Virus record (IMG/VR): IMGVR_UViG_3300025141_000034
Location: 32,001 to 96,000 of that record
From: a virus
Direction: 5' to 3' (one strand)
Length of the DNA: 64,000 bases
A program made the translations under genes and the position numbers. Below are positions 15,642 to 52,029 of the stretch, in pieces. Within the stretch, counting starts at the first letter, position 1; each line of letters begins with the position of its first letter. The notes beneath the pieces are model-generated. The model saw only the letters and a program-made list of their open reading frames with translations. It ran no database searches and was not told the DNA's origin.

Positions 15642-16253
15642 ATGGCAACAACGACACTATATGATTCTGATCTTAGAAAAGTAGAATCCATTACTGTCAG
15701 GTCAGGATCAGATGAGGGAGATATTGACGTAACAATATTTCCAAACAGGATTCAGATAGGTTTGGATGATAGCGACTTCAATCATGTCAATGTAGTGTCA
15801 GGAAGCCTCAAGGTAACTGACAGGATTAACGGAAAAATACTTCACTATACACATCATAACTTTACCGTTGCATCAACAAGTGTCAACTATATTCCTATGA
15901 GCTCAACAACAGAAACTACAACTGTAACAGATCAACAGGTAGGATTTCAAGCACCCCACAACGGCCAGCTTAAGAAGGTTTTAACTAAGGTAAATGTTGT
16001 GTGGGGAACTAACCTGGCCCATAGCACAACAATTGCATTTCACAAAGGTCCTGACGGAACTGAGAGTGTTAGTGCGTCAGCAACAGAATCTGGCACAGTA
16101 GCGCTGATAGCTTCAAATACTACTAAAACAGCATCTTTCTCAAGCTCAACATTTAGTGCGGGTGATACAGTTGCAATTTCAATAGACCCATATGCAAGCA
16201 CTTCTGGAAAGGTAAGAATGACTTGTGTGTGGGAATATGACACTAACACATAA
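15642..16253 (+). CDS. small beta-rich virion protein
   Basis: 203-aa S/T-rich ORF with a jelly-roll-like C-terminus (FSAGDTVAISID...VRMTCVWEYD). Confidence 0.65.
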   Translation: MATTTLYDSDLRKVESITVRSGSDEGDIDVTIFPNRIQIGLDDSDFNHVNVVSGSLKVTDRINGKILHYTHHNFTVASTSVNYIPMSSTTETTTVTDQQVGFQAPHNGQLKKVLTKVNVVWGTNLAHSTTIAFHKGPDGTESVSASATESGTVALIASNTTKTASFSSSTFSAGDTVAISIDPYASTSGKVRMTCVWEYDTNT

Positions 16254-47195: not shown

Positions 47196-49127
47196 ATGAG
47201 TAAATCCTTTACGTTAAATCAACTAACAGAGGGTATTCGCCAGAGACATCTAGGTTCTCAAAACAAGCGTCTCGTTGAGAAGTGGTCTCGTACCGGTCTT
47301 CTTAGAGGCCTTGACGGACAGCACAGAGAGAATATGGCGGGCCTTCTTGAAAATCAGGCTGCACAGCTTCTTAGAGAAGCTAACTCGATCGGCACAGGTG
47401 CCGGTGGAGGTACAGCCTCCGGAGACCTTAACGGTTTCACAAATATCGCATTTCCAATTGTTCGTCGTGTTTTCGGCGGTCTAGTGGCAAATGAGCTAGT
47501 TTCAATCCAGCCGATGAGCCTTCCTTCCGGACTGCTTTTCTACCTGGACTACACATACGGCTCACGAGTCGGTGGTGATACAAACCTCGCCACAGGCGCT
47601 GCTGGAACAGTAGATGCACAGACATATAAGATTGGTCAGTCAATCTATAACAACCCTGCTGGAAAGGGTATCCGTTCAGGATCTCTTGGTGTCGGTGGTC
47701 AGTATGACCTCGTCGGAGCAGGATTCTCGAAGGTTCACACGTCTTCAGAGACAATTACCACAAAGGCCTCAGGTGCTTATGGTGTCGGCGGTTCTTCAAT
47801 GACACAGGATACACTAGCTGTTGCAACAGGTACAGACGGTAAGCTTCTGCAGTTCGACCCTCAGGTCACAAGACTTATTGAGGATGACCCCGGTCAAAAT
47901 AACACCGGAAGATTCTCATTCATTCTATGGAATCTGAGCTCATTCCCTGCAAGCATTGACCTTACACAGGCGAAAGAAGTTGCACTATTCAGCGGGCAGA
48001 CTGTTTCAGATGCTGATGCTACCACATTCAACTATAAGAATCTTCCTGTGACAATTCAGGGCGGTAACGGAATTAAGAATGTTCGTCGTCTCAACCAGAT
48101 CGGTACATACGATGCTGGATCAGGTGTCTTTACAGCAGATCCATTTGCCAATAGAAACACCACAAACGGTGTTCTACTAACAGTCGTGTCCGGTGTTAAT
48201 GCAACACAGGCTGCTACAGGTCATCACATTACAGCATCGTTTGTTATCGCACCGACGCTGGGTGTTGACAGTAGTGATGGTTCCACACTTACGATTCCTT
48301 CGTTTGAGTCGAACTTCAGCTCATCGTCACCCTCACCGATAATCCCAGAGATCGACATCAAGATCGAGTCCATCGCGGTTACAGCGGTTACCCGTAAGCT
48401 ACGTGCTCGCTGGTCACCAGAGCTCGCCCAGGACCTGAACGCCTACCACAGCCTTGACGCTGAGGTTGAGCTTACTCAGATCCTCTCCGAGCAGATCGCA
48501 CTCGAGATCGATAGAGAGATCTTGAATGACCTACTGGTCGAGGCACAGGGAGCTAACTTCTACTGGTCGCGTCTACCTGGTAAGTTCGTTAACAAGCGGA
48601 CAGGTTCCGAGGCACTTAAGGCTAGCACACTAGCTTCAGGTCCTCAGTTCACAGGTACAGTCCGTGAGTGGTATGAGACTCTTGTTGAGACTCTTATCGA
48701 TGTTGCTAATGAGATCCATCGTAAGACACTTCGTGGTTCGGCTAACTTCATTGTCTGCTCACCTGATGTTGCAACAATCTTCGAGGCATCCGTGCTCTAT
48801 AAGCCGGCTCTCAAGATTGATGGCGACGGACAGGTTGGTGCTCCATTCTCACTGGGTGCTGCGTCAATCGGTTCTCTAAGTAACCGCTTCACAGTCTACA
48901 AGGATCCCTACTTCCCACGGAACAAGTGTCTCGTCGGATATAAGGGTGGAAGCTACCTAGAGACAGGCTATGTATACGCACCTTATGTGCCGCTGATCGT
49001 CACTCCCACTATCTTCCAGCCGGAAGACTTCACACCCCGTAAGGGCGTGATGACCCGCTACGGCAAGAAGATGGTTCGTGCTGACTTCTACGGTACAGTT
49101 ACAGTCATGGATATGGACGTTATCTAA
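47196..49127 (+). CDS. gp23: major capsid protein (T4 gp23-like)
   Basis: KWSRTGLL, LLENQ, FPIVRRVF...VSIQPMSLPSGLLFYLD, TRKLRARWSPELAQDLNAYH..DAEVEL..ILSEQIALEIDREI, YAPYVPL, FTPRKGVMTRY. Confidence 0.96.
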   Translation: MSKSFTLNQLTEGIRQRHLGSQNKRLVEKWSRTGLLRGLDGQHRENMAGLLENQAAQLLREANSIGTGAGGGTASGDLNGFTNIAFPIVRRVFGGLVANELVSIQPMSLPSGLLFYLDYTYGSRVGGDTNLATGAAGTVDAQTYKIGQSIYNNPAGKGIRSGSLGVGGQYDLVGAGFSKVHTSSETITTKASGAYGVGGSSMTQDTLAVATGTDGKLLQFDPQVTRLIEDDPGQNNTGRFSFILWNLSSFPASIDLTQAKEVALFSGQTVSDADATTFNYKNLPVTIQGGNGIKNVRRLNQIGTYDAGSGVFTADPFANRNTTNGVLLTVVSGVNATQAATGHHITASFVIAPTLGVDSSDGSTLTIPSFESNFSSSSPSPIIPEIDIKIESIAVTAVTRKLRARWSPELAQDLNAYHSLDAEVELTQILSEQIALEIDREILNDLLVEAQGANFYWSRLPGKFVNKRTGSEALKASTLASGPQFTGTVREWYETLVETLIDVANEIHRKTLRGSANFIVCSPDVATIFEASVLYKPALKIDGDGQVGAPFSLGAASIGSLSNRFTVYKDPYFPRNKCLVGYKGGSYLETGYVYAPYVPLIVTPTIFQPEDFTPRKGVMTRYGKKMVRADFYGTVTVMDMDVI

Positions 49128-49148: not shown

Positions 49149-49178
49149 GAGGCGGCTCTTTGAGCCGCCTCTTTTTTT
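49149..49178 (+). terminator. intrinsic terminator after MCP
   Basis: GAGGCGGCTC-TTT-GAGCCGCCTC (10-bp perfect stem) followed by T7. Confidence 0.9.
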
Positions 49179-49216: not shown

Positions 49217-50092
49217 GTGATCATCTCTCACAAGAATAGATTTGTCTTCTTTAAGCCTATGAAGGTCGCCGGATCTAGCGTGGAAGTAGCACTTAGTGAG
49301 CACTGCGATGATGGTGATATTTTAACAGGAACTAATCACGTAGATGAGATTTCGTCAGATGAATATGAGTATCCTACAAGAAATAACATCGTAAAGCATA
49401 CACATAAGGGAGATGTTGCATTAGCAATAATGAGGAAGACAGGAAATATTCACAAGGTCACTCCTGAGATGATTGAGGCGGGATTAAGAATAGAGATCTT
49501 AGAGCCGAGATTTCACATGCATGCGCTTCCAGAGCAGATCTTAGATCAGGACATTCTTAAAGAAGGGTATAGAAAAATAACTGTTGTGAGAAATCCGTGG
49601 GACATGATCATTTCATTTTTTTGGTGGTCATTCTATACATCTCCAAGCGGATATGTTGACTCTGGTGGCACCGTTCATGAGAGCAATGGTGACTTAGGTT
49701 TTACTCCGAGAAGTCATCCAGAAGCTGCTCCTCGACCGTTAGACGATGCAGATACGCTGAGTCGTAAGCTAGAGATCTTTTGTCAGCTGACAGGTGACTT
49801 TAAGGGTCCCTTGGGTGTTGAGAAAGATAAGAATGTTCTTGATTGGTTCATAGAGACGAATAAAAAGTATTATCAGATTGATTACGATTATGTGATAAGA
49901 CACGAAAGCCTCCAGCATGATTACAATCAACTCTGTAGTGATCTCGATCTGCCTCCTTCAAGACTGCCTAGATTAAAAAGCAGTCAGAGAAAGATAAGAC
50001 TGCCATATCAGGATTACTTTAACGAGTGGACTAGGTCTCACATTGATGATAGGGTAGCAATGTGGATTGAAAAATTTGGATACTCATTTTAA
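49217..50092 (+). CDS. sulfotransferase (Sulfotransfer_2-like, PAPS-dependent)
   Basis: IISHKNRFVFFKPMKVAGSSVE (5'-PSB loop), TVVRNPWDMIISFF (3'-PB motif), DYVIRHESLQHDY, and C-terminal YQDYF...IEKFGYSF. Start is probably the GTG at 49217 (ORF open from 49202). Confidence 0.8.
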   Translation: MIISHKNRFVFFKPMKVAGSSVEVALSEHCDDGDILTGTNHVDEISSDEYEYPTRNNIVKHTHKGDVALAIMRKTGNIHKVTPEMIEAGLRIEILEPRFHMHALPEQILDQDILKEGYRKITVVRNPWDMIISFFWWSFYTSPSGYVDSGGTVHESNGDLGFTPRSHPEAAPRPLDDADTLSRKLEIFCQLTGDFKGPLGVEKDKNVLDWFIETNKKYYQIDYDYVIRHESLQHDYNQLCSDLDLPPSRLPRLKSSQRKIRLPYQDYFNEWTRSHIDDRVAMWIEKFGYSF

Positions 50093-50110
50093 TTTAATGA
50101 TGATATCTTA

Positions 50111-50117
50111 ATACTTA
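50111..50117 (+). promoter_or_regulatory. putative late promoter ATACTTA
   Basis: ATANTTA motif, here about 90 nt before the start codon, immediately before a structured leader. Confidence 0.5.
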
Positions 50118-50120
50118 GCG

Positions 50121-50183
50121 TTAAGCCCGATGCACGGTATAAGGCGGAACCTACACGTTAGCATTGGAAGCATGTAGGCTTAA
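50121..50183 (+). ncRNA. candidate structured 5'-leader RNA (pseudoknot)
   Basis: CCGATGC(50127-33)/GCATTGG(50161-67) crosses CCTACA(50150-55)/TGTAGG(50173-78), and both are enclosed by TTAAG/CTTAA. A GC-richer patch in an AT-rich gap. Confidence 0.5.
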
Positions 50184-50207
50184 ACACAAAAAATAAAAGG
50201 AGAAATT

Positions 50208-50687
50208 ATGCCAAAGGTAAAATATACATCATCTGCGGGACTAGTTCAGTCAGCAGGAGATGATGTTCAAATCGAGGGAACACTTCGTCTTCGAGCCACG
50301 AGTGCTCCAAGCCTGACAGTCAAGTATGCTGCAGCAGCTGTTCCAGGTACTTCAAATCAGACTATCACCATTGCCCAGCTAAAGACCGGCATTCTATATG
50401 ACGATCCTGAAGGTGCAGGAACATGGACGCTTCCGACAGCAACGTTGCTTTTGGCAGGTCTTCCAGGATATGCTGTCGGTGATTGTCTAGACTTTTCTGT
50501 CATTAACAATGCTACGACAGGTGCAGACGAGATAATTACTATGGCAGTGGGAACCGGTGGCACAGCTGCTGGAAATATGCTAGTTGCTGCTCCAAATGTT
50601 ACTGAGGACCAGGAAAATTCCGGAAGTGCAATGTTTAGAATTAGAATTACATCATCTTCAGCGTATGTGTGCTATAGATTAGCATAG
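50208..50687 (+). CDS. putative head decoration / small virion protein
   Basis: 159-aa A/T/G-rich beta protein (TWTLPTA...GDCLDFSVIN) with strong SD AAGGAG, near the MCP. Confidence 0.6.
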   Translation: MPKVKYTSSAGLVQSAGDDVQIEGTLRLRATSAPSLTVKYAAAAVPGTSNQTITIAQLKTGILYDDPEGAGTWTLPTATLLLAGLPGYAVGDCLDFSVINNATTGADEIITMAVGTGGTAAGNMLVAAPNVTEDQENSGSAMFRIRITSSSAYVCYRLA

Positions 50688-50709: not shown

Positions 50710-50741
50710 TAAAAGCACCTCTTTTTACAGGGGTGCTTTTA
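50710..50741 (+). terminator. intrinsic (possibly bidirectional) terminator
   Basis: TAAAAGCACCTCT-TTTTAC-AGGGGTGCTTTTA hairpin with A/T flanks. Confidence 0.8.
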
Positions 50742-50796: not shown

Positions 50797-52029
50797 ATGG
50801 CGTCTAGCATGAGAACCCTTAAGAAAAACTACAGGAAAGAACCACCAAAAGAGCGTAAGAAGAAAGAAACTAACTCTAAATTTTACGCCGACCAGGACAT
50901 GGTGGAAAATAACCTAACGCTAGACGATAATAGCAAGCAAGAGCGAAAGCCAGCCTCACCTAAAGGGGAGATTAAGAGAGATATGACCAGTACTAATGAC
51001 GATTTTGATTTTGTAGCAGACTATGATGATGCTGTGGTCGGAGAGAGTGAAACTCTTCTTCCTGGAAACACAGCACCTTCGTCACTTTCCGTCGGTTTTG
51101 TCGGTGTAGGTGGGGGTGGCGGAAAGATGGCAAAGGCCTTTATAGATCTAGGATTTACTCAGACTCTGGTTGTGAATACCACAGACAAGGATCAGCCAAC
51201 TGAACTGGGAGAGGATCACTTCCTTCTCATTCCAGGTGCAGACGGTGTAGGAAAGAATGTTGAGTTAGGTCGTCAGATTCTATCTAATAATAGCGCACTT
51301 GTTGAGGATCATCTTAGATCTAAGGTTGGAAGAGTTGACTGGCTATTTGTTCTTGCAGGCGGCGGCGGTGGGACAGGAAGCTCTTGTTACTCACTGGACT
51401 CAGCACTTCAGCGATATCTTAAGTCAGTATCTGCTTCTGGAAATGTTGTCTATGTAGTGACATCGCCTACAGCGCAGGAGCTCTTGAACCCGACGATTAA
51501 GAAGAACTATGAGTCATTACTGTCAGATGTCACAGGATCAGCGCATGTGGTTATAGACAATGAGAGACAGCTACAGCTACTTAGAGGAAAGGTTGGCATG
51601 CTCGGGCTCTATCCTTCTGCAAATAAGAACTTTGCAAAATTGATTGCACAGGTTCTTAAGCTATCTTCAGAATCTTCACCAATTCAGACATTTGATTCCA
51701 AAGATCTTGAAGTTTGTCTCTCAACAAAGGGAAGACTCTTTCTCGGAACAACAGTTGTTAAGGATCCAAGCGATCTAAACCTGGGATCGATGATTTATCA
51801 GAACTGCATGACGAAGTCTCCATGTCCCTCACCTAGCGGTAAGATAAAGACAGGTGTTTTGTTGCTTGTAGTTACTGAGGCGATGGCCTCCGATCCGGCA
51901 ATAAGCACTCAGCTCGAGGCTGCAATATCTTATGTCGGCGGAAGAACTGATGCACTATTCTCAGGTGTCTACGTTAGAGAGGGATTGCCGGGGCTTGTTG
52001 CTATTTCTGCCCTAGGCGGAATTGAGTAA
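50797..52029 (+). CDS. tubulin/FtsZ-superfamily GTPase
   Basis: T1 loop FVGVGGGGGKMA, VNT..D, T3 GADGVGKNVELG, signature LAGGGGGTGS, VIDNE, T7 loop FDSKDL, and a C-terminal activation-type domain. Confidence 0.88.
   Translation: MASSMRTLKKNYRKEPPKERKKKETNSKFYADQDMVENNLTLDDNSKQERKPASPKGEIKRDMTSTNDDFDFVADYDDAVVGESETLLPGNTAPSSLSVGFVGVGGGGGKMAKAFIDLGFTQTLVVNTTDKDQPTELGEDHFLLIPGADGVGKNVELGRQILSNNSALVEDHLRSKVGRVDWLFVLAGGGGGTGSSCYSLDSALQRYLKSVSASGNVVYVVTSPTAQELLNPTIKKNYESLLSDVTGSAHVVIDNERQLQLLRGKVGMLGLYPSANKNFAKLIAQVLKLSSESSPIQTFDSKDLEVCLSTKGRLFLGTTVVKDPSDLNLGSMIYQNCMTKSPCPSPSGKIKTGVLLLVVTEAMASDPAISTQLEAAISYVGGRTDALFSGVYVREGLPGLVAISALGGIE

Follow-up and report, generated by a model that had tools for sequence, protein, structure and literature searches.

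Organization of the locus and architecture of the leader RNA

Analysis of the region upstream of a 159-amino-acid (aa) open reading frame (ORF) in the virus record IMGVR_UViG_3300025141_000034 revealed a pseudoknotted RNA element of about 60 nucleotides (nt), which consists of an outer helix (P1), an inner helix (P1b), and a helix that crosses P1 (P2). The stretch analyzed, referred to here as the window, is a 64-kb part of this 125-kb IMG/VR record, whose completeness is estimated at 37% by CheckV. T4-type head, neck, and tail genes are encoded on the plus strand of the window. The element is positioned within a 115-nt gap 5' of the ORF (50208-50687, plus strand). Upstream of this leader, a gp23-type capsid gene (47196-49127; Pfam Gp23, E value 4e-76) is followed by a sulfotransferase-like gene; downstream of the ORF, a tubulin-like gene is followed by a neck gene. 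A pseudoknot of P1 and P2 had been proposed at this site from the letters of the window (the original prediction), and the sequences and coordinates given there for the helices are exact. The RNA element consists of the following parts.

50127 to 50133, plus strand: 5' strand of P1, CCGAUGC; pairs with 50161-67 by six Watson-Crick pairs and one G-U pair in the window
50134 to 50142, plus strand: J1, an A/U-rich asymmetric internal loop, ACGGUAUAA; 9 to 11 nt in all parsed copies
50143 to 50146, plus strand: 5' strand of P1b, GGCG; pairs with CGUU at 50156-59 by two G-C and two G-U pairs in the window
50147 to 50155, plus strand: hairpin loop, of which the last six bases (50150-55, CCUACA) are the 5' strand of P2
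50156 to 50159, plus strand: 3' strand of P1b, CGUU; partner of 50143-46
50161 to 50167, plus strand: 3' strand of P1, GCAUUGG; partner of 50127-33
50168 to 50172, plus strand: J2 linker, AAGCA; family consensus AAKCWU
50173 to 50178, plus strand: 3' strand of P2, UGUAGG; forms the pseudoknot with the hairpin loop (50150-55)

P1b is compatible with P2 because it closes the loop that holds the 5' strand of P2. Throughout the family, P2 is formed by the last four to six bases of the hairpin loop and a strand located 5 to 6 nt downstream of P1, and it closes a 13- to 14-nt loop built from the 3' strand of P1 and J2. The window belongs to a minority subfamily of eight copies, characterized by a 9-nt hairpin loop (7 nt in most other copies), an extra base between P1b and P1, and a P2 of 5 to 6 bp. 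Across the 69 distinct copies described below, the G+C fraction was 0.73 in the helices compared to 0.28 in the unpaired bases and 0.275 in the upstream flanks; these G+C-rich helices give a stable fold.

About 10 unpaired bases of the motif are conserved in the 59 type-B copies. The first base of J1 is A in 55 of these copies, as is the fifth base from its end (55/59). J2 reads A in 57, A in 56, C in 59, and a final U in 59 of the type-B copies, its bases having been fixed by the retrieval pattern in 28 of them. This conservation outside the helices suggests that the RNA adopts a specific tertiary structure or is also recognized by a protein.

Retrieval of related leaders

Homologues of the 159-aa protein were taken, together with their flanks, from viral and metagenome contigs. 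The leaders of homologues starting with MPKV showed the same layout with different helix sequences. A covariance model was built from eight leaders with the nested helices only, and the pseudoknot helix P2 was left out. This model gave 18 matches in 97 sources and 41 matches in 95 sources. The copy in the window scored 20 bits, with an E value of 0.035 among the 97 sources and of 0.01 in its own genome.

A gene-independent scan of viral contigs was carried out with a pattern made of RNA positions only. The pattern matched 49 viral stretches, of which 11 were at loci already collected, all of them matched by the model, and 38 were new loci. Thirty-five of the 38 new loci carry 36 strong model matches (47 to 77 bits). 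The hits at L215 and L230 (one sequence, 16.8 bits) and at L227 (no model match) were rejected as chance hits. When the same pattern was applied to 185,579 species of bacteria and archaea, each represented by one genome, 50 matches and no true copies were obtained (best match, 15.2 bits; E value, 0.64). The total of 69 distinct copies comes from marine phage contigs, and the carriers are a large, ocean-wide group of uncultured marine T4-like phages. One strong copy was present in each of five large records (115 to 273 kb), and one copy was present in the record of the window; two copies each were found in L102/L127 and in L218.

Covariation of the three helices

Four sets of sequences were evaluated: A3 (8 sequences, aligned with MAFFT), A4 (41 distinct leaders, aligned to the model), A5 (the window subfamily, 8 sequences, aligned with MAFFT), and A6 (the set retrieved by the pattern scan, independently of the gene). 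The sequences are kin, so counts of alignment cells are not counts of events, and A4 and A6 were fitted to the nested helices.

In A3, 99.2% of the cells were paired and 12 of 15 pairs were doubly changed, compared to 32.5 to 45.0% pairing when the partners were slid by one to three columns. In A4, pairing reached 98.3% of 605 cells with 14 of 15 pairs doubly changed; slid partners paired in 18.5 to 37.2%, and none of 500 shuffles was as high on any of five measures. P1 was 97.9% paired in A4, with compensated changes at six of its seven pairs, and P1b was 97.5% paired with all four pairs doubly changed. P2 was 100% paired with four of four pairs doubly changed, although this helix had not been part of the search model; one of its pairs occurs as A-U in 18, G-C in 16, and C-G in 6 leaders. 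Both main helices of the original prediction, including the one that crosses P1, are conserved and compensated in these leaders. In the window subfamily (A5), pairing was 98.2% for P1 (3/7 pairs doubly changed), 100% for P1b, and 87.5% for P2 (2/6 doubly changed), with the outermost P2 pair (50150/50178) formed in only two of eight copies. In A6, 99.6% of the cells were paired; P1b was 100% paired with four of four pairs doubly changed, and P2 was 100% paired with three of four.

RNAalifold analysis of a plain MAFFT alignment of the 41 leaders, from the putative transcription start to codon 11, returned P1 and three of the four P1b pairs, 9 of these 10 pairs being compensated, and nothing else. 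An unguided mutual-information scan of 59 of the 69 distinct copies ranked two P2 pairs highest, and one P1 pair and one P1b pair completed the top four. The scan detected no further partner for J1, J2, or the 5' overhang. A single lineage-bound correlation linked the first P1b pair with the second base after P2 (five copies, one subclade). In the 69 copies, 948 cells were Watson-Crick pairs, 78 were G-U pairs, and 9 were mismatched; the 78 G-U pairs place the structure on the sense-strand RNA.

Two further helices of the original prediction did not hold up. The enclosing helix (UUAAG, 50121-25, with CUUAA, 50179-83) is present in the window, but in A5 it was 69.7% "paired" with only two columns consistent; one of its pairs had letters in only one of eight copies and another was unpaired in six of eight. 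In addition, transcripts from the putative start site would lack two of the five bases in its 5' strand. The alternative fold, which extends P1 by ACG/CGU and adds an AGG/CCU hairpin, was paired at the shuffle mean (68.8%) with no compensatory changes. The competition postulated between this hairpin and P2 is therefore unsupported, and the conserved inner helix, P1b, coexists with P2. These results indicate that the three-helix pseudoknot is under purifying selection, and the structured RNA family is almost certainly real.

Single-sequence analysis and database searches

The nested minimum-energy fold of the window leader is ordinary (z = -0.93; 35 of 200 shuffles were as stable). A three-helix descriptor built from the relatives, and not from the window, was satisfied by the window leader at 15 of 15 pairs; of 1,000 mononucleotide shuffles, none reached 15 and 12 reached 14.

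Searching Rfam 15 revealed no match at gathering score across the 64-kb window. At E values up to 10, the region around the leader (49900-50400) gave only weak matches to unrelated eukaryotic and staphylococcal models. Two weak matches touch the motif: SCARNA7 (50027-50130, 13.4 bits; gathering score, 65) and HOTAIRM1_4 (50051-50155, 17.6 bits; gathering score, 40). Sixteen related loci gave 16 Rfam matches, none of which overlaps the motif. Weak L20_leader/MicX matches (E values, 0.15 to 3.8; L001 2099-2230, L012 1148-1279, and L107 2432-2561) were dropped, as they lie at the 3' end of the capsid gene and most likely represent the capsid gene terminator. The Rfam search proposed with the original prediction thus assigned no family to the motif, either in the window or in the related loci. 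Among cultured phages, neither the 159-aa protein nor a 30-aa query from its N terminus nor the leader DNA had a match. No description of the motif was found in the literature, and it may be among the unnamed candidates of an IMG/VR catalogue, of which part was available to us (PMC10690425). The motif is a previously uncatalogued RNA family that is absent from Rfam 15. With 69 distinct covarying copies, the proposal of an undescribed, cis-acting, structured leader RNA is upheld.

Promoter-like box, putative start site, and ribosome-binding site

The motif is preceded by a promoter-like box at constant spacing and followed by a ribosome-binding site at variable spacing.

50111 to 50117, plus strand: late-promoter-like box ATACTTA, at -12 to -6 relative to the putative start, by analogy with T4
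50123, plus strand: putative transcription start, an A after a pyrimidine, 6 nt past the box
50179 to 50196, plus strand: variable A-rich linker; no conserved helix by RNAalifold
50197 to 50202, plus strand: Shine-Dalgarno (SD) sequence AAGGAG, as read from the sequence; aligned in all 41 leaders

The box was assigned to the T4 late type on the basis of the T4 late promoter consensus, which is TATAAATA with the start 6 nt beyond the box. In the 41 distinct leaders, a box of the form (A/C)TAnWTA occurs at constant spacing to the motif, with T at -11 in 37, A at -10 in 37, T at -7 in 37, and A at -6 in 38 leaders. Beyond the box, a purine is found at -3, C or T at -1 (41/41), A at +1 (41/41), a purine at +2 (41/41), and G at +3 (40/41). 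Since the box is read as a T4-late-type promoter, the start is placed at A50123 and P1 begins at +5, i.e., 4 nt behind the start, in 41 of 41 copies.

The original prediction held that most ATANTTA motifs precede start codons at short distance and that the gap is unusually long at this leader. Thirteen of the 34 plus-strand ATANTTA copies lie 10 to 40 nt before an ORF start, a class that comprises 1,426 of the 64,000 positions (2.2%), and the gap at the leader is 90 nt; the claim thus holds in part. Overall, ATANTTA is not enriched in the window (53 found, 50.85 expected). The 13 sites at 15 to 37 nt before ORF starts, far more than the density of the heptamer would predict, include those at 16250, 26562, 45646, 50774, 52141, 58503, 62041, and 63765. 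ATANTTA is probably the late promoter of the phage represented by the window. As in T4-type late units, the putative promoter box lies about 6 nt upstream of the start and recurs before late genes.

Between the end of P2 and the ATG, 15 to 40 nt intervene in the 41 copies. RNAalifold analysis of the 41 leaders detected no conserved second structure and no SD-occluding helix between the motif and codon 11. Long linkers (L009, L125, L149, L082, L137, and others) contain a recurring AAUCUC/AACUCU box 8 to 25 nt before the SD sequence. Pairing of this CUC box with the GGAG of the SD sequence, which would be weak, was rejected because the box is missing from the short-linker copies and from the window. 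Likewise, an SD-like or anti-SD mimic in P2 was rejected because P2 covaries freely, and a CsrA-type GGA site was rejected because the last P2 base is A in 26 of the 59 type-B copies, which abolishes GGA.

Genes associated with the motif

The transcription unit of the window comprises the following features downstream of the SD sequence.

50208 to 50687, plus strand: 159-aa gene; conserved N-terminal region of about 20 aa and a fiber-tip-like beta domain
50710 to 50741, plus strand: intrinsic-terminator-like hairpin ending the unit, a 13-pair stem followed by a T run, 23 nt past the gene

The proteins encoded behind the motif share only their N-terminal 20 aa or so, MP[KR][VI]..T..KGL.Q..G.G (50208-50270 in the window). 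Their C-terminal parts are unrelated and the proteins range from 87 to 302 aa (e.g., at L099, L163, L177, and L135). A profile of the family of the window protein recovered only some of the motif-linked proteins, and homologues of its C-terminal domain with other N termini had no motif. An anchor or a protease site is conceivable for the conserved GL.Q. For 35 of the 36 strong matches of the pattern scan, an ORF with the shared or a diverged N terminus (MPR., MPA., MPT., MV.., or MGV.) lies no more than 40 nt downstream, three being cut by contig ends; the remaining match is that of L206, described below.

AlphaFold2 predicted a beta domain for the 159-aa protein, with a predicted local distance difference test score of 78.2. 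A Foldseek search matched the capsid spike of Pseudomonas phage Pa223 (9ny6_C; E value, 1.6e-5; template modeling score, 0.37). The matches in BFVD were many uncharacterized viral proteins and the ends of longer ones, some annotated as tail or fiber proteins or containing collagen repeats. In nearly all loci with sufficient flanking sequence, the cassette is found between the capsid and neck genes; T4 has its collar-fiber gene wac beside gene 13. On the basis of this location, the spike and fiber likeness, and the position of wac, the products are predicted to be small proteins of the virion surface in which the anchor is conserved and the tips can be exchanged.

The motif occurs once per transcription unit, even where the unit contains several genes or an unrelated first gene. 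In L206 (9231-10806, minus strand), the first gene behind the motif is an unrelated ORF of 144 aa that is rich in lysine and proline; three paralogues of 108 to 111 aa with the shared N terminus and then the neck gene come next. In L079, a second paralogue behind the first has neither a box nor a motif of its own. Cassettes are also found in tandem. The tandem copies of L102 (2540-3215) are identical from the box into the first codons and precede different gene bodies, which suggests a recent duplication or gene conversion at the leader; L218 (121-847) and L127 likewise carry tandem cassettes. L009 and L210 have identical 61-nt cores and N termini that differ at several residues.

The tubulin/FtsZ-like gene that follows the cassette in the window (50797-52029) matched Pfam Tubulin with an E value of 4.3e-6, below the family cutoff, and its homologues occupy the same capsid-neck interval in L169, L173, and L177. 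A strong terminator-like hairpin (49149-49171) lies 3' of the capsid gene in the window, and terminator-like hairpins were found upstream of the promoter box in several of the related loci. The cultured phages with the nearest capsid proteins are Flavobacterium phage immuto (47% identity), Microcystis phage Mel-JY01 (46.5%), and Rhodothermus phage RM378 (39%). RM378 is the cultured member of the "Far-T4" phages, the hosts of which are largely unknown (PMC4360716). Ribosomal protein S21 was not found in the record of the window, a result that carries no weight at a completeness of only 37%. A NUDIX hydrolase is encoded in two of the five large motif-bearing records (G001:C1:33916-34188 and G003:C1:134181-134498), which are the most complete motif-bearing ones; this observation is circumstantial and was not used as support.

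Candidate functions of the motif

The reading preferred here, tentatively and at somewhat less than even probability, is that of a 5'-terminal nuclease-blocking or stabilizing pseudoknot that acts in cis on the whole late mRNA. The motif would form the extreme 5' end of the late transcript, with the compact pseudoknot starting at +5, and would serve as a 5'-terminal shield or roadblock for the entire transcript. The process blocked would be 5'-end-dependent decay, i.e., entry and scanning by RppH and ribonuclease (RNase) E or attack by a 5'-to-3' exonuclease such as RNase J, and the outcome would be a long-lived late messenger for an abundant virion-surface protein. The leader might in addition bind a protein. 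A role at the 5' end, as opposed to the ribosome site, is favored because the distance to the start is fixed, the distance to the ribosome site is variable, and the operons of L079 and L206 have a single motif for more than one gene or for an unrelated first gene. Of the three functions offered by the original prediction, the stabilizer fits the anatomy best; an operator resembling that of T4 gene 32 is possible, without membership in that class, and the small ribozyme gained no positive support.

Several points weigh against a stabilizer. A plain hairpin would suffice for protection of a 5' end. For a conserved pseudoknot with about 10 conserved unpaired bases, binding of a ligand or a protein is at least as good an explanation. 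With four unpaired 5' bases, the motif is at the upper edge of what 5' stem-loop stabilizers tolerate in Escherichia coli. Since the window has no terminator between the sulfotransferase-like gene and the leader, a read-through transcript from that gene would hold the motif internally. The start site, transcription from the box, and the effect on stability are all inferred. The host RNases considered above are presumptive, the nearest cultured capsid proteins being only 39 to 47% identical. Finally, further pair types in A6 were not above those of shuffled controls (376 of 500 shuffles reached the count); the outer P1 positions had been fixed by the retrieval pattern, which makes this set narrow.

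A more specific form of the stabilizer, argued by analogy, is unlikely: the motif may represent an exoribonuclease-resistant type of RNA, the first in a DNA phage, in which the 5' end of a late mRNA is blocked by a pseudoknot latch and without any protein. Such an RNA would stop bacterial 5'-end-dependent decay by RNase J or by the scanning of RNase E, would resemble in construction the exoribonuclease-resistant RNAs (xrRNAs) of plant viruses but with an independent origin, and would travel as part of a portable cassette of promoter, shield, and anchor peptide placed before exchangeable virion-surface domains.

The conserved unpaired bases keep two other explanations alive, a translational operator and a riboswitch. 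According to the first, which is doubtful, the pseudoknot is the target of a phage protein that controls how much surface protein is made, the binder being either the N-terminal 20 aa or so of the encoded protein or another conserved late protein. The RNA is conserved jointly with the N-terminal peptide and the C-terminal domains are exchanged, which is consistent with an operator, as are the 10 or so conserved unpaired bases themselves and the A-rich unstructured linker that follows the motif in the window. A precedent is T4 gene 32, the product of which acts on its own leader, as described in a T4 review (PMC3014915). However, the linker to the ribosome site (15 to 40 nt) is not conserved, the first gene is unrelated in L206, and one motif serves two genes in L079. 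Moreover, the N-terminal peptide is not notably basic, and N termini differ between L009 and L210 although the cores are identical.

A riboswitch, in which the pseudoknot would serve as an aptamer and adjust late expression in response to a small molecule or ion, is improbable. The motif forms a compact pseudoknot of the H type whose joining bases are conserved, and its size is close to that of the preQ1-I/II, SAM-II/V, fluoride, and guanidine-III classes. However, no Rfam riboswitch matched at E values up to 10 in the window and the 16 related loci, the motif is not followed by a conserved expression platform, terminator, or SD-sequestering helix, and the spacing to the ribosome site is variable. 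A virion-surface gene also presents no obvious metabolite signal, as far as can be judged from its inferred role.

Trimming of read-through transcripts by a self-cleaving ribozyme, or by RNase at a processing signal, would produce a defined 5' end. The order of elements is loosely like that of the hepatitis delta virus (HDV) ribozyme (P1 of 7 bp, a short hairpin whose loop has 7 nt, the return of P1, and a loop-to-tail pairing), and the window has no terminator between the sulfotransferase-like gene and the leader. This explanation is nevertheless very improbable: no Rfam ribozyme matched, C-G and not G-U forms the first pair of P1 in 37 of 41 copies (A4), the partner of the loop lies 5 to 6 nt past P1 and forms 4 to 6 bp instead of a 2-bp P1.1 directly after P1, and no 3' partner exists for J1. 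Given a promoter box at fixed spacing, cleavage would be superfluous, and several loci have terminators upstream.

A further candidate is a promoter-proximal RNA that acts on RNA polymerase, by put-like antitermination or antipausing, or that provides a standby or enhancer site for the ribosome. Its location directly after the putative start and its operon-level association in L079 and L206 agree with such a role, but the unit of the window ends at a strong terminator-like hairpin 23 nt past the gene, the ribosome site is already strong, and the put RNA of HK022 consists of two stem-loops, an architecture that differs from the motif; a polymerase- or ribosome-directed element is therefore highly improbable. 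Barely credible is the absence of any RNA function, with conservation reflecting a DNA-level recombination linker for cassette exchange: identical leaders before different gene bodies in L102 and identical cores with different proteins in L009 and L210 would fit, as would the PeSL cassettes described below, but a recombination linker needs identity and not pairing, and here compensatory changes preserve three helices including the pseudoknot, with the 78 G-U pairs corresponding to A-C mismatches on the other strand.

If the nuclease roadblock is true, the xrRNA principle would extend to bacteria and DNA phages, and a 60-nt portable mRNA stabilizer would be available. If an operator or aptamer is true, the motif would represent a new class of regulatory RNA. 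Either way, the motif, which is coupled to a fixed start site and a modular surface-protein family, marks sites of exchangeable virion-surface genes and thereby aids annotation.

Comparison with known systems

Pseudoknotted leaders are rare in phage biology, and the motif is a second leader pseudoknot, unrelated to that of T4 gene 32 and with unusually clean covariation. The T4 gene 32 operator has two coaxial stems, short loops, and a conserved A+U-rich tract that reaches the ribosome site. Both RNAs are 5'-leader pseudoknots of T4-type phage mRNAs located a few nucleotides from the RNA 5' end. In contrast to gene 32, the motif has three helices, its 15- to 40-nt linker is not conserved, and the downstream gene encodes a fiber-tip- or capsid-spike-like protein instead of a protein that binds single-stranded DNA; the motif is thus not a member of the gene 32 class. 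As stated in the 2010 T4 review, the pseudoknot of gene 32 is located 67 nt upstream of the AUG, cleavage by RNase E at -71 leaves it close to the 5' end of the processed mRNA, the transcript parts upstream of this cut are rapidly degraded, and the pseudoknot is possibly the only viral case for translational autoregulation (PMC3014915).

The xrRNAs of Tombusviridae and Luteoviridae share the order of elements with the motif, namely, an outer stem, an internal loop, an inner stem, an apical loop, the return strands, and a 3' strand that pairs with the apical loop. The pseudoknot-closed loop is 13 to 14 nt in the motif, a size compatible with such a ring, and the ring is about 15 nt in the plant-virus xrRNAs, which close it around the 5' strand with a stem-loop and a pseudoknot; xrRNAs also stop bacterial RNase J1 (PMC8374639). 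Unlike the motif, xrRNAs are known from eukaryotic RNA viruses, where they reside in 3' untranslated or intergenic regions, and neither sequence nor Rfam similarity links them to the motif.

Stabilizers of the ompA type place a structure a few nucleotides from the 5' end, independently of the distance to the ribosome site, as does the motif; the rule derived from ompA is that a 5' stem-loop stabilizes irrespective of that distance. They differ from the motif in being plain hairpins without conserved loops or pseudoknots.

HDV-like ribozymes form a nested double pseudoknot of P1, P1.1, P2, and P3 (and P4), with a 2-bp P1.1 directly after P1 and a G-U pair at the cleavage site. The HDV-like and theta ribozymes resemble the motif in a 7-bp P1 near the 5' end, a hairpin with a loop of about 7 nt, and a loop-to-downstream pairing, but the motif has no P1.1, no J1/2-to-3' P2, no P4 or J4/2, and no G-U as the first pair, and it does not belong to this group. 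Nor does it belong to the pseudoknot riboswitches (preQ1-I/II/III, SAM-II/V, fluoride, and guanidine-III), as no Rfam match and no conserved helix up to codon 11 were found.

PeSL (promoter/stem-loop) cassettes of T4-type phages have reportedly been proposed to mediate shuffling (PMC2839356 and PMC4122927). Like the motif with its duplicates in L102 and L218, they are compact units of promoter plus structure repeated before exchangeable genes. They combine an early promoter with a terminator-like stem-loop, whereas in the cassettes described here the box is of the late type and the structure, a pseudoknot, lies downstream of the start.

Fremin, Bhatt, and Kyrpides (2023) listed 8,495 structured-RNA candidates in IMG/VR, the source collection of the window, including cis-regulatory candidates upstream of genes (PMC10690425). 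The contexts named in the part of that catalogue available to us are GP20, GP32, and a few others, which differ from the context of the motif. Among these systems, the motif is a member of none, and it would work most like a 5' stabilizer, an xrRNA, or the gene 32 leader.

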